Below are positions 15,367 through 61,579 of a stretch of DNA of 64,000 bases, one piece after another. The stretch lies in assembly GCA_000091205.1 (NCBI GenBank), contig AP006499.2. One strand, 5' to 3'. The notes under the pieces are model-generated. The model did no database searches. It was not told the DNA's origin and was given only the letters and a program-made list of their open reading frames with translations. The position numbers were made by a program, and so were the translations under genes. Numbering within the stretch: position 1 is the first letter of the stretch; each line of letters opens with the position of its first letter. The stretch is from Cyanidioschyzon merolae. Lineage: Eukaryota.

Positions 15367-17180
15367 CAGCTGCGGCTATCAGCCGCAAGAGGCTGGTGCG
15401 TCTGTCTGAAGCGCTTTGTCTGCGAGGCGACAAAGCAGCAACCGCTTCTGGAGTAGCCGGTGCTAGTCCGAGTCAGGTGCTCTAAGTATGCGCCACGGAT
15501 ACTGACTGCTAGGTACTGTCGAGTCGAAGACAGGTCACATTCGGGGTTCCAGATGCCTTATGGACCATAACGCGTCAGTCTGCACAGCTCTGAATGACGG
15601 TATCGTGTTTCTCAAAACCAAGGAGCAAATGCAGCGATCCACAAAGATGCGGCATTGGTAGACTCATGGAAGTGCTCGCGCACAAGCAGCTGAGACGAGT
15701 GCCTCCAAGTCCCGAAGACATTTTATTCGAATCCCCTGGTTCCAAAAACAACCTACGTTGCCCTGGGCGCTGGGTCTTTTGTCCGGAGGTATTGGTGTCT
15801 AAATCGGCTCGGTCTGTCTGGGAACTTGCAAGAACGTAGTGGACGGAGCTGTCCAGACAATGCTTATGATCCCGAATTTTTTGGGATCCAGTCTCTCGTG
15901 GTACATTGCGCATTCATGAGTATCGACATATAGTCTGTGGAGTGTGGAAACTGGCGTCTGCAATGGAAGGCTGGTCGTTTTTCTGGGCACTGATAACCAT
16001 CCCACACATGAGCATCCTTGTAGATTCATCTCGAGCCTTTATCATGAACAACTACGAGGTCGGCTTTTAGAGAGCGGAAGACGTCTTGCCGTACGGCTCG
16101 CTTCGCATCATTCGGTGTCGTTACACTGCCTGTGGAATACCCAGAGCAGTGATTTCGGGAATGCCCGCACCAGCATACCATTCATTTCTGTAATTTTCTT
16201 GGTGAAGATATTGAACGGTAGGAAATTGTCCTGTGGATTGGAGGGAGGGGCGGCGAGACCCTACGTTGTCAGTGCTCGCCTGCGAAAAAAACGAGCTACC
16301 TTCCACGAGTCAGTTATTCTGCTGTTAGCAGTTGAATGGACCACCTACTTCCTAGTTCCTACAACGAACGTCGTGTACTCGAAAAGCGACTTAACTAACC
16401 GGATCTAAGCATTTGCATACTAGTGAAACCAATGCCATTCAACACGTCTTGCCGAAAATATGACTAAAGAAGCCACAGGACACCGCGTCTCGGTACCGTT
16501 CGTGCGAATATTGATAAGAGGACACAAGTGGAAAAAACGGAAAATGCACGTTTCCGTCAGAGACCGTTGCGCAAGGAAACACACATGATCGAAGAGGCTC
16601 TGAAATGCGAACGTTCAAGACAGGAAAGACGAATGGAGTCCCATTACATAAGATTTTCTTCGAAGGCAATGATGGACCTGTAGATGGATACTCATAGAGG
16701 GACAGATTGCTGTTCGTAAAGAGGCGACTAGCGAGAATGCTCACGAAATCAACTGTGGCAGCGTTTGAATCCCGTTGTCTCCAATAAATTGCTGAACGCA
16801 CAAGATCGTTCAAAACCTCATTTGCCGTCGAAGAATGCTTCGACGGCTTCTCCTTTCCGAATTTTTCCGTCCTGTTGGTAAGCAAAATAGGTTTGTGTCA
16901 GTCAAATGCTATCGTGGGGTACCCAATTGTGATTTGCGTTGGGCTGCGCTTTGCACCAGGCCATTCGCCCGGATTCAGTCGAGTCGAAGTCGTCGTCTCG
17001 GATACAAAACATCACTTCCATGCTGATTTATCAATAGATGAGTCGTTCGCATCCCTGAAATCAAAATATGCGGGACGCCATGAAAGATCGCATAACCTTT
17101 TAGTCGAGGGCGTCTCGCCAGCCTTCGCCAGCCCTGACGCACCTCGTCAAGAAACCATTCGTAATGGTTCCCGACGCAAG

Positions 17181-17744
17181 GCGGCCATTTTCCCACATTC
17201 CTCAGAGTATGGTCGATGAAATCCCTCGTACGACAAGAGCATAGATATTCGGGGCCATTTTCCCACATTCCCCAGAGTATGGTCGATGAAATCCCTCGTA
17301 CGACAAGAGCATAGACATTCGGGGCCATTTTCCCACATTCCTCAGAGTATGGCCGATGATACCCCTCGTATGACAAGAGCATAGATATTCGGGGCCATTT
17401 TCCCACATTCCTCAGAGTATGGTCGATGAAATCCCTCGTACGACAAGAGCATAGATATTCGGGGCCATTTTCCCACATTCCTCAGAGTATGGCCGATGAT
17501 ACCCCTCGTATGACAAGAGCATAGATATTCGGGGCCATTTTCCCACATTCCTCAGAGTATGGTCGATGAAATCCCTCGTACGACAAGAGCATAGATATTC
17601 GGGGCCATTTTCCCACATTCCTCAGAGTATGGTCGATGAAATCCCTCGTACGACAAGAGCATAGATATTCGGGGCCATTTTCCCACATTCCTCAGAGTAT
17701 GGTCGATGAAATCCCTCGTACGACAAGAGCATAGATATTCGGGA
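17181..17744. repeat. 70-bp minisatellite, 8 tandem units, two alternating unit variants
   Basis: The unit ggccattttcccacattcctcagagtatggtcgatgaaatccctcgtacgacaagagcatagatattcgg begins at 17183, 17253, 17323, 17393, 17463, 17533, 17603 and 17673. The B variant reads ggccgatgatacccctcgtatgacaag. The overlapping 68-aa MWENGPEY... ORFs are the same unit read in three frames, because 70 is not divisible by 3. Confidence 0.9.
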
Positions 17745-19820
17745 CAGATGCTGCACTACGACCTGATCGAAGCGTCAGAGATTTGCATACACGAATCCTA
17801 GCAGACCTTGGCGCGTCGTCGCACCGTCTCGTCAGTCGGAACACCTGCAACGAAGGAGCTAAAATGAACCGAAAACTATCTTCAAAAACCCAAAACCATA
17901 TGCGGGCCAATCTCGAGCGCTTCTTGAGTCGCGCTGTAGGGGCGTTGTATCCGTTGTACGGTCTCCGTACCGTCCCCGAAAAGTGGGAAATGACACAAAT
18001 GATGTTTGGGGCGACGACGGAGGCAACTGACGAGCTACTGGCAGGACAGATCGATATGATAGCGAGTTCGGAGATGATATCGTAAAGAGAGCATTTGTCC
18101 AAACTCGTAGTGTTGTACTGGGCCTCGGAGCCGAGAAACTCGTAGCTCAAGGGTCTTTGGAACGTCAGCCGTGCTTTCATGGCACCGTCCGCGAATACGT
18201 GATGGTGCATAGAGCCTTCTAGAGCAAAGCGGATTGCGTCTTCGAATCCAGCCGCCCGAGTGCTCATAGGCGTCTATTCGATGTGATGCCCATACGTTAC
18301 ATCAAGGTCCATTCTACTTTCATAGGTATGCTGTGGTAGACTGTATGGCCTTCTCGGGGCGTCAGGGCTGGCCCGTACAAGCAAGCAAGACGCTCTCGAA
18401 CAAGTTCGCGAAGAGCATTGGCGGCGCACGTTCAAGGTTCCTCTGTTTCCTGGAGGTAATGGAAAGCGGCTTACACGGATCATGGATACAGACGAGCTAT
18501 CAGTCTGCTTGCTCGTTTTGAAACCTAGGCCTGCGTCGACCAAAGAGACTCGTTGTAAACGGTTGAATGTAGACGAAGAGAAAACTCTTGTGGTGAGCCT
18601 CTATCCCGCAGTCGGGAACATGATTGCTGCCGACGTGCAGAGATATCAAGGGTACAGAGCCAAAAGACCTGAATGGAAAACAGATGAAGCTTCCCAACTT
18701 CTCCAGGGCACGGGATCGTCGAGCGCCGAGTCTAATAGCCGCCAGTGGGCATCACATCGAACGGAATGAGGTCGTCAGGCCGACCCCCTGTCGAAGCTCT
18801 GCGAACCGTATCGAGTAGAGTAGGGGTGATTTGTGCGCTTCATTGAGCGCGCATATGAGCGTCCAAACCGCTCATGCAGACGGTCTGCGGCAAGTGGGCA
18901 TGAGACCAGGCTGAGGTCGCCGGTGGTCTAGGTTGTGCGGGGGCAAGAATCGTGCATTCGCCGACTTGTTCAGAGAGCTGGACAAGAAACCGCCCTGTAA
19001 GGAGTGAGGCTTCATGCCCTTCTCCCTTGCTGGTCGTGTTGCAGAGCGCAAAAGCTGCACCACGATTCCGTTGAAGAGAGCTTATAACTCGTGCAGGAAT
19101 CGATTCTGTACGATTCTCATCGATACGTTCAGGACGGCATATACGCAGCAGGAGAACGTCTGCACGCTCGAACTGGCATACAAAAAGAGAGCGAAAGCGT
19201 GCATGACACGCGACATGGAGTATAGCAGGCTGACCGATCGTTCAATAGCGAGGCAATCGCTCGTGAGACGCCTGCTCTGTTGCGCTTCCACCAGCCACAG
19301 TGCACCCGAGCGCTTCCTGCATCGAGATTCGATCACCTGAATCATTATCCGGAAGTATCTGGGGCCTCCGCAACTTCCAGCGTGTTTGTGTCGATCGAGC
19401 TTTCGACGTTATCGTTTCGTACCCAGTATAGGCTTTCTGCTGGAACGCTGAAGACTTGGTTTGAAATAAAAAAGATCCTTGGCCATGCGGAAAGCAACTC
19501 GTTTCCAGCCTGGACCAACGCTCCAGCACGGTACTGGTTCAGCAGTCTATGAGGCCTGGAGCACCGTATGTATACACCTGGGACAGGTTACCTGGGCAAT
19601 ACGTGAATGATCATAGTATTCCTTTCTCGATTTGCTCCAAATGTCCCAGGCAGCACAGACAAACTTTAGGTACGCAACGTGCGATCGAAAAGTCACAATG
19701 CACCTGCATCCGTACAGGGATCCATTCAAGCGTTGGCACCAGCTGGGCACTGCAGTGCCCCAGTTCATGTCGAGTAGTATTTTCCAACGCGAGCGGGCAC
19801 GTCACCGAACGCTCGCCTAT

Positions 19821-20117
19821 GCCACCTGGTCGGATATGCATTTGAACGCCGTCGTGTGCATCAGGCACGCTCCTCGCCCTGCATATCCTACTTTGCCACC
19901 TGGTCGGATATGCATTTGAACGCCGTCGTGTGCATCAGGCACGCTCCTCGCCCTGCATATCCTACTTTGCCACCTGGTCGGATATGCATTTGAACGCCGT
20001 CGTGTGCATCAGGCACGCTCCTCGCCCTGCATATCCTACTTTGCCACCTGGTCGGATATGCATTTGAACGCCGTCGTGTGCATCAGGCACGCTCCTGTCC
20101 CTGCATATCCAACCGGT
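19821..20117. repeat. 74-bp minisatellite, ~4 tandem units, each with an internal 9-bp inverted repeat (ggatatgca / tgcatatcc)
   Basis: The unit gccacctggtcggatatgcatttgaacgccgtcgtgtgcatcaggcacgctcctcgccctgcatatcctacttt begins at 19821, 19895, 19969 and 20043. The last copy diverges. It lies about 170 bp 3' of the LSG1-like gene. Confidence 0.9.
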
Positions 20118-22414: not shown

Positions 22415-22708
22415 ACCACCTTGTTGACCGCTTCCTTGACTCGGGCATGTGTCAAGGAGGTGCTTTGTTTTACAGAAGCTCACAGGACTCGAGATCGTGA
22501 AGTGTGGCGTTCACCACCTTGTTGCCAGCTTCCTTGACTCGGGGATGTGTCAAGGAGGTGCTTTGTTTTACAGAAGCTCACAGGACTCGAGATCGTGAAG
22601 TGTGGCGTTCACCACCTTGTTGCCAGCTTCCTTGACTTTGGCATGTGTCAAGGAGGTGCTTTGTTTTACAGAAGCTCACAGGACTCGAGATCGTGAACTG
22701 TGGCGTGT
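22415..22708. repeat. 98-bp minisatellite, 3 tandem units, each with a 7-bp-stem hairpin (ccttgac N10 gtcaagg)
   Basis: The unit accaccttgttgccagcttccttgactcggggatgtgtcaaggaggtgctttgttttacagaagctcacaggactcgagatcgtgaagtgtggcgttc begins at 22416, 22514 and 22612. It lies about 190 bp upstream of the LSG1-like start codon. Confidence 0.9.
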
Positions 22709-25571: not shown

Positions 25572-27589
25572 GTCTTTAAGCAAGCCTGCGCCTCTGAGTT
25601 TTATGCAGAACTTGTGGCTACCCGCACACAAGGCCGTCACTTGCTGAAGTGCAGGGCGGCTTGGGCTTCCCGGCCTCCACAGCGTGCTCCGCCTCCTGGA
25701 AGCGTTGTTTCGTGCAGCCGACACCTGTTGTACACTGGGGCGGCGGCGATACTTGTTCAGGTTTTACTGGAGATACGCACGGCGTTCTCGTCTTGGACGC
25801 AAGCTAGTTCGGAAGTTGAACGCTGAAACGTAGCTCCAGTAGGTCACTTAGAGATGCATCAAATCGTATCCACAGCTCATACGAAGGAACCAACCTTGTA
25901 CACGGTAGCTTTTCAGGCATGCTCGTACATTGACTGCAATAGTTCGCTGCACAGGTCACGCACAGCCAATTGACCGCTTCAGAGGGACTGTTTCTCATTT
26001 CGTAGAAGGACGACCGAATGCATCAGTCTTTTGTTTTTCAAAAGGCTTCTATGGCTGCATGGCTGCAATGGAACCAGCCTGAAGGATAAGCAGTAGAGTC
26101 CGGGGACAGCAACGACTTGCGACGCCGTACACCAACCAGTTTGCAGCGTCCGTGGCTTGCTCGGAGCCTCCAACGCTACAGCGGCTCTTTCGTGGTGCTG
26201 AGAAGGGCACTGCACGCAGTACTGCATGGTTCAGTTGAGGCTTTTGGCGTCGCTCGTGAGTCCTGGCTTGTTGCAACCGGCAAGTCACAACGCCGTTGCT
26301 TTTTTATCATCATGCACGCCAAAGCAGATGCTCAGAGTTCAACATCCAGTGCTGATCTTGGAAGCGAACATGTGCCATCAGCTTCCGAAAGTATTGTTCC
26401 GTCCATAGAATGAAGCGATGAACGTGTCTCGCCTCAAAAGTAGTTTCTTCCGAAGCGTTCTGCTGACGTATCTCAGGAGAGCTCCTTGAAATTTCGGACT
26501 CCGGTGAGTGGCGAAAACAGGTTGAACAAATACACGGCAGCTGGTAGCGGTTCTCTGCTTAGAGTTCTAGGGATTAGAGACCGCCAGAAGAACGTAGATA
26601 TGCCTGCCTTGCGTTGAACAATGCTATCATTCACATCCGGGACGCGATCTACATTTGTGTCAGATGGAAATACAGCGCGGAACGGCTCGCTCTGTTCCCG
26701 TATTTCGATGTTTTCCGGCCTGGTTTAAATGGATAGCTCGATATTCAGTGTGCGGCAATGAGGGTATATGAATGCATACCTCGTTTGAGGATGCTCGGTC
26801 GTCATGTCACCTTCGACGCTTTTCCGCTGGAATTCGATACGTGATCAGAGTCAAGATGATTCGCGACGCTGTCAAACAAGGCCTCGTATGGTAAACGATA
26901 CCACTATCGAATGCGTGCGCACAGGTATCCGCTCTTCTGCTTTCAGTACATGCGGCAAGCTCGATTCACGCGTTCTCTAGGTTTTGGAGTTTTCTGTTCC
27001 AAGGCAACCTGCAGTCGCAGCCAATGGCGCCTTTGAGTTGACGATGGAAATTCTCGACATCGCCCATGGACGACTTGTTCACAAGCTCATGCCGCACGTT
27101 CATTGAACTTGTCACTCCGAATAATGGCTGGCGTTCGAGAAACCAATTCGCCTTCCATTGAAGCCATCGATGAAATCTCATTGGACAACAGCTTGATACT
27201 TCTCATGGGATATGCTCCCAGGGGTTCCAGTCTATTTTAATAACATGGCAAAGAGTCTTGGGCTCGGACTCTAACCATCGCAGCGACCGCACCGGCGCTA
27301 CAGGCGCCATTTCTGTCGCTTTCGGCAGGCACTAGGCACACACGATAGGACATATGAAACGACCAGAATATCCGAGAAGAAGTATAGGTCATGTAACTTG
27401 GGAGTAGGGGGTTGATAGATACTTTACCCCGCACTGAAAAAAAAAGCCAAAAAGAAAAGAAAAATGCGCAGAGTCGGAGAACGCTGGCCTAAGGAAGCGT
27501 CTTGTCCATGAAAAAAAATCAACGATGCCAACGCGCGTGACACAGCGTTGCGTGCGCCGCCTTCTTCTCCGCAGCCGAGGCAGCTGATG

Positions 27590-56065: not shown

Positions 56066-57430
56066 TTAGCGAAGCTCGGCCACGTCCGACATCTCCAAAC
56101 GGATACATTCACGCACCTGATTCTGAATACGATTGATTTCTTCGTCGGTTAGAGAGCGGTCCGGGCTCCGGTATGTGATCCGATAGCAGATGCTCCGTCG
56201 CTTCGTTTTGGGATGGACAAATTCATCCACTCGCGAAATGTCCTCCACAAGATCACCGGCTAGATTTCGCACGAGCTCGCAGAGATCATTCTCGTGGAAC
56301 AGACGGCCACTTGTGCTGCCGTTCCCGTCGCTGGCCTCGGGTTGGTCCTTCACCCACATAGATACGTCCTTGTAGACGGGTGGATACTTACTATACGGTT
56401 GAAACTGCGTGATGACTCCGTCCTGAAACTGCTTGATGAAACGCTTGTCTGAGCTCCAGAATAATCGGATGTCGGGTACATCGAACAGCACCATGGCGAG
56501 TCGCTCGAGGCCGAGCCCAAACGCCCAGCCCGAGTGCTTAGCGGGATCCACGTCGCCAGCCCGCAGCACATCGGGTTGAATCACACCGCAACCGAGTACC
56601 TCGAGCCAGTCGCCTTGCCACAGCACCTCTAATTCGAGCGAGTGTCGCGTAAACGGAAACTCGGCGTCGACCCATCTGACCGGGATCGGTGCTGCATCGG
56701 CGTCACTCAAAGCGGACGTCCTCGGGGATTTGTCCGCTTCGGAGTTCTTCGGCCAGCGAAAGAGGTACTGCGCCAGCCCGTACAGCGTCTCCTTCAGGTC
56801 TTCCAGGACCCACGCTTCAGACGGCGCATCCGCAAAAACGCGCACACCATCCATTTGATGAAAGATTGGATAGTGCTTTTTATCGATGGAATCGCGTCGA
56901 TAGACATCTCCTGTGACGAGGAACGCGCGGTAGCCCTGCCGCAGCAGCTCCGTATCATGTGCAGTCGTATGGGCACGCAGCACCGTCGCCTCATCCAGGT
57001 AGTACGTGTCTGTCGGACGGCGGGACGGGTGGTCCGGAGCGACCAGCAGTTCGTCAAAGCAAGCGCGCGTACTGACGATCGGCGGCAAGTCATGAAACTT
57101 TGCAAACTGAACCGGTGGTCGCCCTTGCTTCGCACCTAGCTCGTTTTCAAAATAAGCTTCGATGATTTTTCGCAGCGTGCACAGCGGATGATGCACGCGG
57201 TTGTGGAGCTTTTCTGATGGGGTTGCTTTCGCTTTCTCCAAAATGTGCGGCGGAATATTGCTCTTCGTTATGGTGGACTGTGCGCGGAGTGCTCGAGCGC
57301 CGCGCCCTCGTGACAGGTGACGGGCGAGCGTTCCGTGTGTGCTGTTCACCGCAGGCAACCAAAGTCGTTGTGCTGGGACCGTCCGCCATCGCTGTGCTAC
57401 GATGAACCCAATACCCCAGTTTTCCACCAT
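56066..57430 (-). CDS. FARS2: Organellar (mitochondrial-type, monomeric) phenylalanyl-tRNA synthetase, FARS2-like
   Basis: FDELLVAPDHPSRRPTDTYYLDEATVLRAHTTAHDTELLRQGYRAFLVTGDVYRRDSIDKKHYPIFHQMDGVRVF matches human FARS2 ([39 protein letters not shown]...[30 protein letters not shown]). The ORF-track start at 57448 is a TTG. The first ATG is the reverse complement of 57428-57430 and gives MVENWGIGFIVAQRWRTVPAQRLW..., a plausible presequence. It is ~454 aa. Confidence 0.9.
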   Translation of the reverse strand: MVENWGIGFIVAQRWRTVPAQRLWLPAVNSTHGTLARHLSRGRGARALRAQSTITKSNIPPHILEKAKATPSEKLHNRVHHPLCTLRKIIEAYFENELGAKQGRPPVQFAKFHDLPPIVSTRACFDELLVAPDHPSRRPTDTYYLDEATVLRAHTTAHDTELLRQGYRAFLVTGDVYRRDSIDKKHYPIFHQMDGVRVFADAPSEAWVLEDLKETLYGLAQYLFRWPKNSEADKSPRTSALSDADAAPIPVRWVDAEFPFTRHSLELEVLWQGDWLEVLGCGVIQPDVLRAGDVDPAKHSGWAFGLGLERLAMVLFDVPDIRLFWSSDKRFIKQFQDGVITQFQPYSKYPPVYKDVSMWVKDQPEASDGNGSTSGRLFHENDLCELVRNLAGDLVEDISRVDEFVHPKTKRRSICYRITYRSPDRSLTDEEINRIQNQVRECIRLEMSDVAELR

Positions 57431-58712
57431 AGGAACAGCGTGAAACAACTCGAGAGCCTTGTCCTCCAGTATCTATTTACGCCTAATCGGTACCGAACGC
57501 TAACGTTGCTCGCTGTGAAACACCCCGATACAAACTGGAGTGCGTTCCCCGAAGCGACGTCTATCGTGTGTTGCGTGCCGCACGAGTTGAGGCACGGCTC
57601 ACTACTGTCGATGAATTGTAGACGAGACGCACCGCCGCAAGCAGCCATGCCTCGGTCCAGTGAAGCCATGGGGCTTGCGTTCGCCACGACGGCCATAGAC
57701 TCATACTAGTATAAAATTGGACAGGTCCATTTTGCGAAACCCCGACAGATACACATCTGAATACCAGCATCCGCGGACGTTTTTTCTGCGATCATTTCCT
57801 TTTCCTTTCATGCAGCTCCGTCTTTGAATGCGCGGGTCTCTCTTTTGCCTCGAGATCCATTGCCAGCAGTCGACGGATGTTGATCGGAGCTTTCAACTTC
57901 TCATCTCGCTGCTTCCACTACTGTCAATGAATCTCATGCGCAGGCGGTTACTGAGATCCGCCCTTCGCTTCCCATATTCATCTTCTTTGTATGCAGACTC
58001 GGTGTGCGCCTCGCGCCGGTGACACTTGTGTGTGGTCAGGTGTTTCGGTATGGTCAGCGTACCTCCTTCGCATCCTCTTCCGAGAGTCACCCAGCGGTAC
58101 ATGAAGGCTCTTTTCATCGCTCGGTACATGCGCTTTTCTAACACAGAAGGCTCCATCGGGCGCGCTACCCCATTTTACGCGCCCAGCATCATTTCCCTTG
58201 ATCACGCGATTTTATCAATCGGATCCTTTCAGCCAGTATGCTGCATACTGCACGTGCGAGCGCATGCGATTCCAGTAAACAGAGGATTTGTGGCAGGGAA
58301 TGTTGTCCATAATAAAAACCCTGTTCGGGAATGCAGATATAGGTTGGCGAAGCATTCGAGAATTTCCGATCTCTCTACGCGACCTACAAGTAAACCGATG
58401 ACGCGCTCTCCGCTGAAAGCAATCGCTACGTTAACGAAGGTCCGGATCTAAGACTCTTTTGCCATAGAAACAGGGCAAACGACAGAGTCTGTGCTTGCGA
58501 ATCCTGTAATGGATATATAGCTGCTGTGGAATCTCGTTTCGTCGACTGCCACAAGGAGCGAAGCATCTATATTCCGAACAAAATCCAGGATTTGACGTCA
58601 CAAGTTCCGTGAACCTCGACCCGAGCTTGTGATCAGGTCGTTTATCGAGCGGCTCGAATGACTGCGCCATCAAGCTGCATTCAAACAAACATAGGGAACG
58701 CTTCAGGAATGC

Positions 58713-59190
58713 GCGATTAAAGCACGCTACGCATAACGAATTCGAAAGCATGAACGCTTGCATCTTTGCATTGGATGACGATATCGGTTATTTCAGCTTC
58801 AAGAATACGCGATTAAAGCACGCTACGCATAACGAATTCGAAAGCATGAACGCTTGCATCTTTGCATTGGATGACGATATCGGTTATTTCAGCTTCAAGA
58901 ATACGCGATTAAAGCACGCTACGCATAACGAATTCGAAAGCATGAACGCTTGCATCTTTGCATTGGATGACGATATCGGTTATTTCAGCTTCAAGAATAC
59001 GCGATTAAAGCACGCTACGCATAACGAATTCGAAAGCATGAACGCTTGCATCTTTGCATTGGATGATGATATCGGTCATTTCAGCTTCAAGAATACGCGA
59101 TTAAAGCATGCTACGCATAACGAATTCGAAAGCATGAACGCTTGCATCTTTGCATTGGATGACGATATCGGGTATTTCACGATGCCTTGT
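58713..59190. repeat. 96-bp minisatellite, 5 near-identical tandem units; open in one + frame as five 32-aa repeats (MNACIFALDDDIGYFSFKNTRLKHATHNEFES)
   Basis: The unit gcgattaaagcacgctacgcataacgaattcgaaagcatgaacgcttgcatctttgcattggatgacgatatcggttatttcagcttcaagaatac begins at 58713, 58809, 58905, 59001 and 59097. Only 3-4 substitutions occur across the array. ORF 58750-59229 is an in-frame reading of the array. There is no evidence beyond openness that it codes. Confidence 0.9.
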
Positions 59191-59959
59191 TCGAGTGCGT
59201 CACGATTCATCTTGATTCCGGCAAGGTAAAAAGCCCTGCGGCAACTCGTCGATAAAACCAGCCCTAAAATACAACCGAGTATCCTGAAGCTGCGTATGTA
59301 CCCGTACGCTCATATTCCAGAACTTCAAAAGTCAAAGCCGTACATCCAAAGCAAGTTTGTCAAAGACGTGCAAGCAGGAACAAATTGAGCAGCTTAGTGT
59401 TCGATGAGCAGCTGACACGACTGCAGGCCCCGATTTCACGTGATCCGCTCCGTGAACTCCTGCGTTTCAGGGCGATTTTTTTTCATTGACAAAACGTTTA
59501 CTTAGGCCAGCGTTCTCCGATTATGCGCATTTTCCTTTTCTTACTTTTTTGTGTGTTTTTTTGCGCGGTGAGGTATCCATCAACCCCTACCTTCACGTTA
59601 CATTACCTATACTTCTTCTCGGATATTCTGGTCGTTTCATATGTCCTATCGTGTGTGCCTAGTGCCTGCCGAAAGCGACAGCAGTAGCGCCTATAGCGCC
59701 GGTGTGGTCGCTGCACGGAGACAGAACGACGTTGCCGTACCACACAGAGGGCGTCGGCTCGAGGGTTTCCGGGCGATGCTCTGATCGGCCGCGCACAATG
59801 GATGGACATGAAAATCCATTTTTGTATAGTCTCCACGAGTGCGCCGTTTGCGAGCGATGAACGCTCCGGGCTGCACTGCCGCCGCAGCGACACGGAGGCG
59901 CAGCGACCTGCAAGCGCCTACAGACGTCGAAACACATTCGTTGCAGACCGAGTAAGACC

Positions 59960-60142
59960 ATGGACGAGATAAGCACATTGCCACCAAAACGAGTGTCGCT
60001 TCAAACTGTAAAAGATTCCATTGCGAAAGAGTGGACGACGAAGGAGCTGCGCACACAGAACCTCAAGTTCGTTCGGAACCTAGCTTTTTTCATTGGAGCG
60101 ATCTACGTTTTTCGCAAGTACGGCAAGTGGATGGAAATCTAG
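59960..60142 (+). CDS. Small ORF (60 aa) with strong Kozak context (gaccATGG) and a C-terminal hydrophobic/amphipathic helix; weak resemblance to the cytosolic helix of Sec61-gamma/SecE
   Basis: The protein is MDEISTLPPKRVSLQTVKDSIAKEWTTKELRTQNLKFVRNLAFFIGAIYVFRKYGKWMEI. The segment S.Q.VKDSI...TK..R...K matches Sec61-gamma ([25 protein letters not shown]). The universally conserved C-terminal transmembrane region (IGFFVKLIHIPI) is not present, so the assignment is doubtful. Confidence 0.35.
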   Translation: MDEISTLPPKRVSLQTVKDSIAKEWTTKELRTQNLKFVRNLAFFIGAIYVFRKYGKWMEI

Positions 60143-60193
60143 TCCAGCTCACCTACCGTGCTAAAACACACTTGTGCGAGTGTGTTCTATAAT

Positions 60194-61579
60194 ATGGAGC
60201 AGGTATCAGGGACAGAGTCGCCGGCGAGGAGGCAGGGTTCTGTTCCTCCACAGCTTGAGTCAACGGCGGCAGGTTTCCCGGCCGCAGGCCACCGGGACGC
60301 TCCGGCATTCGCAACGCTCGGCGCGCTGGCACGTGAACGCATTGCACGGACAAGCGTTTCGCACCGGCAGCTTGCCCGTGAGAGCGGCAGCGTGTCCGAA
60401 GAAAGTGAGCGGCGCCCCAGTGCTGATGCACTTGCTTGGCAGCACTGCTGCTGGCGGGCGCCGACTGAGCGTTCGGACGCCGTAGCGCTCTTCAGTTTGT
60501 CGGAGGTGTTCCTATTGATCCGGAGTGAGTACGCGCCACAGTCTGTTTATGGGTGGCTAATGCTGACGCATATGCTTCGAATGCCACCGGAAACGCTCGC
60601 TCGCGAGGCTGTGATCGACCCGGAAATCAGAGCAGAACAGGCATCAGTTGGCGACGAAAATAGGACGTATGGTGGTTTTCTGGAGCTTGTGCTTTTCATG
60701 CACGTGGGGGTCGCTTTGCGGGATGCACTGCACTCGCGAAATCGCAACGTGAACGAGGCTGCCCTGGAATGTCTGGCGCATTTGCTGCATCGTCTCTTCG
60801 ATAGCGACGTGCTTGCTTTTGTTGACGGGTGTGTCTTCGAAGATGACAAGGACCAGATAGGCGACGATTACAATGAAGAGGCATTGATAGACCTTTGGGC
60901 TTCCATGGAGCTCCGGAACGACTCCGATAACCCGAGCTCCCGCGCCAAACATGGAGACAACGACAACGATACCGTTGATGAGGATGCAGAGGTCGGTGCT
61001 GCCGGTTCCACCGCCATGGGCAGCAATCTCTATGAAGACTACCGCCCTACGTCCCATGACTGGGTTATCGAAATGGTGACCACCGGTCTGGTTCCGGTTC
61101 TGCTCGGACTTTTCCAGAGCAAACTGCGACAGCATGTGATCGATCCCCGGGTAACCAGATTGAGTTACTTCCTGATATGGGTGCTGCACCCGTGTCTACG
61201 ACTAGATGAGGGCGCGAGCATCTTGAAACAATTGCTCTCCATTGCACTTGCTTTGCTGGAACGTGTCGGATCCGCTGAACCCCAGCAGACTACCAACAGC
61301 GAAACGGGACCTTTGGCGGCGGCAGCGCAGTCGGCCCTGATGCATAGCCTACGAGCAGCCGCCGTACTTGCCATGGATGAGCGTCTCGACATCGAGGAAT
61401 CTGTCCAACACGTAATGGAGGCGAAGCTTCAGCTATGGTTGAATCACTTGGACCTTGAAAACAAGCTGGGACGCCAAGTTGCGAGAAGCATGCAGGCGCT
61501 CGTGTCCATCATGACACGAAACCGTCGCCAAGTAACAAGTTTGTCGCAGTCCGTAAACAATGAGCTTCAGTACTCGTGA
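60194..61579 (+). CDS. Hypothetical protein (~461 aa from the first ATG), no domain recognised; acidic low-complexity insert in the middle
   Basis: The ORF track begins at a GTG at 60158. This is in the same frame as the 60-aa ORF upstream and separated from it by a single TAG. The first in-frame ATG is at 60194 in the context tataATGG. GC content is coding-like and the length is 1.4 kb. Confidence 0.45.
   Translation: MEQVSGTESPARRQGSVPPQLESTAAGFPAAGHRDAPAFATLGALARERIARTSVSHRQLARESGSVSEESERRPSADALAWQHCCWRAPTERSDAVALFSLSEVFLLIRSEYAPQSVYGWLMLTHMLRMPPETLAREAVIDPEIRAEQASVGDENRTYGGFLELVLFMHVGVALRDALHSRNRNVNEAALECLAHLLHRLFDSDVLAFVDGCVFEDDKDQIGDDYNEEALIDLWASMELRNDSDNPSSRAKHGDNDNDTVDEDAEVGAAGSTAMGSNLYEDYRPTSHDWVIEMVTTGLVPVLLGLFQSKLRQHVIDPRVTRLSYFLIWVLHPCLRLDEGASILKQLLSIALALLERVGSAEPQQTTNSETGPLAAAAQSALMHSLRAAAVLAMDERLDIEESVQHVMEAKLQLWLNHLDLENKLGRQVARSMQALVSIMTRNRRQVTSLSQSVNNELQYS

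Follow-up and report, generated by a model that had tools for sequence, protein, structure and literature searches.

Chromosome 17 of Cyanidioschyzon merolae carries, in the spacer that separates two divergent genes, a tandem array of 96-bp units that is very probably a selectively neutral, non-coding intergenic minisatellite (VNTR); the long open reading frame (ORF) that runs through the array is, in the same reading, a by-product. The array was studied in a 64,000-nucleotide stretch of DNA (the window), the sequence of which matches the finished chromosome 17 of C. merolae 10D. In this stretch five units lie head to tail between positions 58700 and 59179. As a kind of element the minisatellite is long known, and the locus is a textbook VNTR: tandem units, variation in copy number, interspersion of variant units and a non-coding location are all found here. 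A search of a collection of papers returned nothing on C. merolae minisatellites other than telomeres and nothing on this locus; the Ensembl TRF track already covers the tandem repeats of the C. merolae genome (PMC11050394).

The spacer that holds the array extends from 57431 to 59959 (2529 bp), in agreement with the 2.5-kb divergent spacer between a PheRS-like gene and a 60-aa ORF described in the earlier note. To the left is the gene for an organellar single-chain PheRS (56066–57430, minus strand), with Pfam domains tRNA-synt_2d and FDX-ACB. Its ORF runs from 56066 to 57448 and the first ATG is at 57430; read from this ATG, 454 of 454 residues are identical to BAM82210.1 of C. merolae 10D (‘phenylalanine--tRNA ligase, mt?’). 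A trypanosomatid strand-switch region, which base composition had suggested at first, was rejected on the identity of this PheRS. To the right is a gene for a tail-anchored, TOM5-like protein of 60 aa (59960–60142, plus strand), with a precomputed Pfam hit to PF27930 TOM5_2. The array is upstream of both genes, 1.27 kb from the start codon of PheRS and 780 bp from that of the TOM5-like gene. Rfam returned no family at E≤1 over 57300–60300, and ARAGORN, run on the whole window, placed no tRNA in the spacer (tRNA genes of C. merolae can be permuted or disrupted, and are then missed by standard finders; PMC3728597). No inverted repeats were found in the spacer. Two further spacer ORFs, at 58026–58451 (plus strand) and 58431–58763 (minus strand), have no Pfam match and vary in length among strains.

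The array was delimited by TRF and by comparison of its units one by one. TRF reports a period of 96, 5.0 copies and 97% matches from 58700 to 59179: the five near-identical 96-bp units noticed at the outset are all present, while the start first assigned to them (58713) lies 13 nt too far to the right. In exact register the five units differ from their consensus by six substitutions, four of them inside the ORF, where three or four had been counted before. Each of units 1, 4 and 5 carries two: A7G and A12G in unit 1 (type A), C80T and T90C in unit 4 (type D), C26T and T89G in unit 5 (type E). Units 2 and 3 equal the consensus and are identical to each other, so that the allele of the window reads A-cons-cons-D-E. 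The adjoining 96 nt show no relation to the unit, with 29/96 identities on one side and 15/96 on the other; the boundaries are therefore sharp and the number of units is an integer. In the window a 50-nt segment of the unit is present five times (zero expected), always within the array. The tandem arrangement is hugely beyond chance.

The unit has a GC content of 0.417, compared with 0.515 in the remainder of the spacer. Short palindromes (CGAATTCG and GATATC) can be read directly from its sequence. Folded as single-stranded DNA, neither strand does better than shuffled sequences (z = +1.3 and +0.9), and an explanation in terms of hairpins or cruciforms was dropped for this reason.

Other alleles of the array were found by matching a 40-mer of the unit to JGI metagenome contigs, together with contigs that encode the TOM5-like protein. 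The 40-mer matched four JGI metagenome contigs, all of which represent this locus with the same left flank; viral contigs gave no match. The unit thus occurs at this locus alone in the window and in the JGI metagenome contigs, and the idea of a dispersed family, raised when the array was first described, was rejected. The flanks of the alleles are 99.1–99.7% identical to those of the window. The largest allele (L009, identical to L016) has eight units in the order A-B-cons-A-B-cons-A-B′ (ABCABCAB′), a 288-bp higher-order block. Next to the five units of the window there are alleles of three units, A-(T44,C90)-E (L017), and of two units, A-(T44,G89) (L008). The single unit in contigs L018 and L020 (megahit k141) is chimeric, joining the types of the first and the last unit, and has probably been collapsed. 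All these arrays share the two boundaries of the array in the window. Unit type B (T44,T62,C64) is missing from the allele of the window; all multi-unit alleles begin with type A, and most end in a unit that carries G89. Five further contigs end within the array (L001, which equals L010, L002, L007, L021 and L022), and L023–L025 end ∼75 bp to the right of it.

Short-read metagenome assemblies may collapse tandem repeats, and the array is an assembly breakpoint; the small unit counts are for this reason lower bounds. Eight units cannot be reached by collapse; the firmest difference is that between eight and five units, together with the variants that are specific to particular alleles. Counts of one, two, three, five and eight units among strains less than 1% diverged amount to the unit-count polymorphism that the earlier note had named as one of two marks of a non-coding minisatellite.

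At least ten environmental assemblies from JGI, ENA and Logan hold contigs that are 99.1–99.7% identical to chromosome 17 of C. merolae 10D. Very close relatives of the laboratory strain are therefore widespread in the hot-spring communities that have been sampled.

Two sister species share the locus in synteny: Cyanidiococcus yangmingshanensis (L006) and a relative whose PheRS is 78% identical (L003–L005, from GCA_041825655.1 and two further assemblies). The conserved order includes PDS5, Rbx1, PheRS, the TOM5-like gene, a 461-aa gene and a 584-aa gene. The spacers between PheRS and the TOM5-like gene measure 1.3–1.6 kb in these sister species. When the C. merolae spacer was compared with L003 and L006 by blastn and tblastx only the gene ends aligned (the N-terminus of PheRS and the 60-aa ORF), and neither the DNA of the array nor its peptide has a counterpart in the two syntenic sister loci (blastn, tblastn/tblastx). 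The array is absent from both sister species and is therefore younger than the split from them. Recent expansion or homogenisation, proposed at first from the near-identity of the units, is borne out on three counts: the interior units are identical, the sister species are without the array, and close strains differ in their units.

The array would have arisen by tandem duplication of a 96-bp AT-rich stretch of the spacer, within the C. merolae lineage and after the split from the sister species. Whole units, or blocks of units, may then have been gained and lost by replication slippage and/or unequal sister-chromatid exchange, and by gene conversion. Such turnover would keep the interior identical, leave the edge units the most diverged and let copy number vary among close strains. 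The constant types of the first and last units form the pattern expected if the interior turns over and the edge units are sheltered. We infer slippage or unequal exchange as the mechanism, and likewise the neutrality of the array. The unit length is a multiple of three and one frame is free of stops; a long ORF follows from this, and its length follows copy number.

The ORF in question encodes 159 aa (58750–59229, plus strand) and lies in a stretch that is open, stop to stop, from 58633 to 59229. It was taken from the ORF list and is judged accidental. The open plus frame of 159 codons is as first reported. Its description as a perfect series of five 32-aa repeats holds in part: there are four full units, one of which has a Y→H change, whereas the fifth contributes 15 residues and gives way to a 16-aa tail, TMPCSSASRFILIPAR, that comes from the unique right flank. 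Peptides of the product would include FALDDDIGYFSFK and fragments of NTRLKHATHNEFESMNACIFALDDDIGYFSFK. Each unit provides an in-frame ATG; the first half-unit has no start codon.

Long open frames of this kind are common in controls. The tandemised unit is free of stops in one of six frames. Among dinucleotide-preserving shuffles of the unit, tandemised in the same way, 71–72% have at least one open frame and 53% have an open frame with an ATG; among random 96-mers from the same spacer the figures are 94–95% and 67%. One of the four minisatellites in the window has a period divisible by three, in line with the chance expectation of one in three. Openness is therefore uninformative as to coding.

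Composition argues against coding. The GC content of the ORF is 0.423 compared with 0.587 in the 12 long genes of the window, and by codon position (GC1/GC2/GC3) it is 0.375/0.344/0.55 compared with 0.67/0.49/0.60; GC1 in the individual genes ranges from 0.64 to 0.70, and in none is it below 0.64. Codon usage was scored in 32-codon windows by a log-likelihood ratio trained on the 12 genes against intergenic trinucleotides. The unit scores −0.088 per codon: only 2.4% of the windows from genuine genes score lower, and 55% of stop-free intergenic 32-codon windows score as high or higher, which puts the unit at about the intergenic median. By composition and codon usage the ORF looks non-coding. 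The first description had left the choice between chance and a young tandem-repeat protein undecided; the protein is left unsupported by openness at control level, an intergenic-like composition and codon usage, the failure to find a genuine homologue and a non-significant excess of synonymous variants.

A word-indexed search of 5.8 billion proteins (E≤0.01) gave no match to the 159-aa ORF. The exact product has no record among 153 billion called genes, a collection that does include PheRS, the adjacent gene in that NCBI genome. HMMER, run exhaustively against 1.84 billion representatives, returned seven matches with E-values from 3e-9 to 5e-4. These were rejected as homologues: they are unrelated, long and highly repetitive proteins with coiled-coil, tail-fibre-like, LRR, beta-propeller-like or ‘YGWFSFSN’ (YGWFSF) repeats. 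When only one 32-aa unit is scored and the library size is kept, no domain exceeds 8 bits (E≥5e5); the totals had been summed from many weak repeat-on-repeat scores. A Pfam match to PF15407 (Spo7_2_N) was likewise rejected: the whole ORF scores 32.1 bits and no stretch of it passes alone. Five units give 32.1 bits, two give 16.6 (the cut-off is 25) and one gives no match; a score that grows with copies and vanishes for the single unit is an artefact of repeat summing.

More generally, with a perfect repeat as the query, whole-sequence E-values from Pfam and HMMER went down to 1e-8 and 1e-9 and were gone when the single unit was used. A prokaryote-style gene caller called the array ORF on L016 (2501–3268, 255 aa) and on L017 (2982–3269, 95 aa); these calls are mechanical and no evidence of coding. 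Neither product came up when the two protein libraries were searched with the 159-aa ORF, and both possibly lie outside those libraries.

Three rival readings, one of them with a variant, compete with that of a neutral minisatellite. The ORF might be a young lineage-specific gene for a protein of 32-aa beta-hairpin repeats, translated from the ATG in each unit. We consider this very unlikely, notwithstanding 159 open codons with an in-frame ATG per unit, and the fact that gene callers called the ORF on two metagenome contigs. An open frame with an ATG appears in 53–67% of controls; none of the window's 12 genes resembles the ORF in composition and codon usage, both of which are typical of intergenic sequence; nothing resembling a homologue goes beyond repeat-inflation artefacts; the sister species have no counterpart, and the exact product is absent from annotated and called gene sets. 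The hypothetical product would moreover range from ∼63 to 255 aa over the alleles with at least two units, in strains less than 1% apart, would lack a start codon in its first half-unit and would enter the unique flank at its C-terminus. AlphaFold2, run without an alignment, gives a repeated beta-hairpin with two beta-strands per unit (best pLDDT 62, pTM 0.62), but the five models are mutually discordant, with pLDDT from 28 to 62, and we treat the prediction as uninformative. Over all alleles the unit has nine variant sites. Read in the open frame, five of them are synonymous; the other four give K→R, T→A, I→T and Y→H. The nine are spread over the codon phases as 5:2:2, which does not differ from uniform (chi-square, computed by hand, ∼2.0 with 2 d.f.). 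Under a naive equal-rates model five synonymous changes among nine sites are nominally unusual (P ∼0.01–0.04, n=9). Eight of the nine changes are transitions, however, and 34% of possible transitions are synonymous: under a transition model the probability of at least five in nine is ∼0.14–0.16 (n=9). CpG transitions make up three of the five synonymous changes, and six of the nine CpG cytosines stand at third positions (our own count, on the consensus). With transitions and CpG modelled the synonymous excess is non-significant in this small sample of nine sites, which would also be compatible with weak constraint. A variant of the same idea makes the minisatellite an intermediate in the birth of a gene, a transcript from the divergent promoter yielding a strain-variable protein of 32-aa beta-hairpin repeats; to this, too, we give very little credence. 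Were it true, the mild excess of variants at third positions would be a first trace of selection, in a host with one of the most streamlined genomes among free-living eukaryotes.

The array might, alternatively, be a non-coding VNTR that acts in cis, altering nucleosome occupancy or multiplying a factor-binding site so that copy number tunes the expression of PheRS, of the TOM5-like gene or of both. This is improbable, if somewhat less so than a coding role. The array does lie upstream of two genes with mitochondrial functions, at 780 bp (TOM5-like) and 1.27 kb (PheRS); the unit is AT-richer than the spacer and contains short palindromes; copy number differs among strains; and promoter tandem repeats in yeast reportedly tune expression (Vinces et al. 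2009, Science). Against this, spacer and array are unconserved, the two sister species keeping the gene pair with spacers of 1.3–1.6 kb and no array; the tolerated range of ∼1–8 copies argues against a strongly selected dosage; and the unit shows no unusual single-strand structure. That the array is an artefact of assembly or cloning in the sequence of the window we regard as hardly credible. Tandem repeats are common sites of misassembly, and short-read contigs do break or collapse at this one, but nine or more independent assemblies, made from different samples, agree on the unit and on the left boundary, the right boundary or both, and the window matches the finished chromosome of C. merolae 10D. 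The neutral, non-coding minisatellite is accordingly the reading that we prefer.

The gene to the right of the array deserves mention in its own right. The TOM5-like protein has amino-acid identities of 70–75% to sequences encoded in L003 (9099–8941) and in Cyanidiococcus (L006, 8611–8450); conservation of this order in two sister species marks the 60-aa ORF as a real small gene. The cluster to which the protein belongs has members from JGI, Logan and ENA sources only, with none from NCBI or UniRef, and the NCBI record for Cyanidiococcus has no gene annotated at this position. On these grounds the ORF seems to encode a small TOM subunit that has gone unannotated in these red algae. According to a 2024 paper on import in C. 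merolae, some TOM components are unidentified among the annotated genes (PMC11298712). The 461-aa gene (ATG at 60194) begins 51 nt past the end of the TOM5-like gene (60142), with which it shares both strand and frame, and a spacing of ∼50 nt is also found in Cyanidiococcus (L006, 8611–7071, corresponding to 59960–61579, plus strand, in the window). The two genes may form a bicistronic pair; reports of polycistronic transcripts exist for Cyanidiophyceae (PMC9812998). In L003 the gene caller stretches the start of the gene downstream into the TOM5-like region.

Three other minisatellites are found in the window, all of them intergenic: 70 bp × 8 (17183–17743), 74 bp × 3.9 (19820–20110) and 98 bp × 3 (22415–22706). 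There are thus four in 64 kb of a 16.5-Mb genome that has been described as unusually repeat-poor (PMC1955436). That these three arrays are unable to code in one frame, as the earlier note stated, is only loosely true: a 167-aa ORF (16975–17478, minus strand) spans 4.2 units of the 70-bp array, and a period that is not divisible by three therefore still permits a long ORF. The window also contains two copies of a dispersed element of ∼245 nt, at 59474–59714 (plus strand) and 27280–27520 (minus strand), which are 86.5% identical and share a perfectly conserved core of ∼75 nt. Both copies lie in divergent intergenic spacers, and the element has no match in Rfam. The match of contig L019 to the window ends exactly at 59477, at the edge of this element, and is followed by unrelated sequence, which suggests that there are more copies elsewhere, or else a rearrangement or chimeric join.

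The biological weight of the array is small, and its ORF is a numerical accident. The array is nevertheless usable as a strain-typing marker for C. merolae-like populations, with alleles of 2–8 units among genomes less than 1% apart. It also gives reason for caution in annotation: periods divisible by three yield long ORFs and inflated Pfam and HMMER E-values, and the arrays themselves break short-read assemblies. If translation of the ORF were demonstrated, this model alga, the genes of which are very few, would offer a clean example of how a minisatellite can give rise to a protein.

Eukaryotic minisatellites, or VNTR loci, have units of ∼10–100 bp, and those of the Jeffreys type are hypervariable. 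The array resembles them in consisting of head-to-tail 96-bp units at a single locus in non-coding DNA, in copy number that differs among near-identical strains and in variant units that are interspersed differently in each allele (MVR-like). The resemblance extends to edge units more diverged than the interior and, in one allele, to a higher-order block of three units. Unlike loci of the Jeffreys type, the array is small (0.1–0.8 kb), is not GC-rich and is without a known recombination-hotspot core motif, and its alleles are known from assemblies alone rather than from typed individuals; unlike the typical setting of a VNTR, its own is a repeat-poor genome of 16.5 Mb. With the promoter repeats of yeast (Vinces et al. 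2009) it shares variability, a position in an upstream, divergent-promoter region and a base composition AT-richer than the surroundings. In yeast most such repeats have far shorter units and a start codon no more than a few hundred bp away; for the array any such role is putative. A third comparison is with the intragenic tandem repeats reportedly described by Verstrepen et al. (2005) in the FLO/adhesin genes of yeast. The array is like these, and like de novo genes, in a unit that is a multiple of three, a frame open across units and a variable number of copies. Genes of the FLO/adhesin type use codons as their host does, carry unique domains at both the N- and the C-terminus, are expressed and have homologues; the ORF through the array, in contrast, is essentially the repeat alone, with the composition of intergenic DNA and without a homologue.
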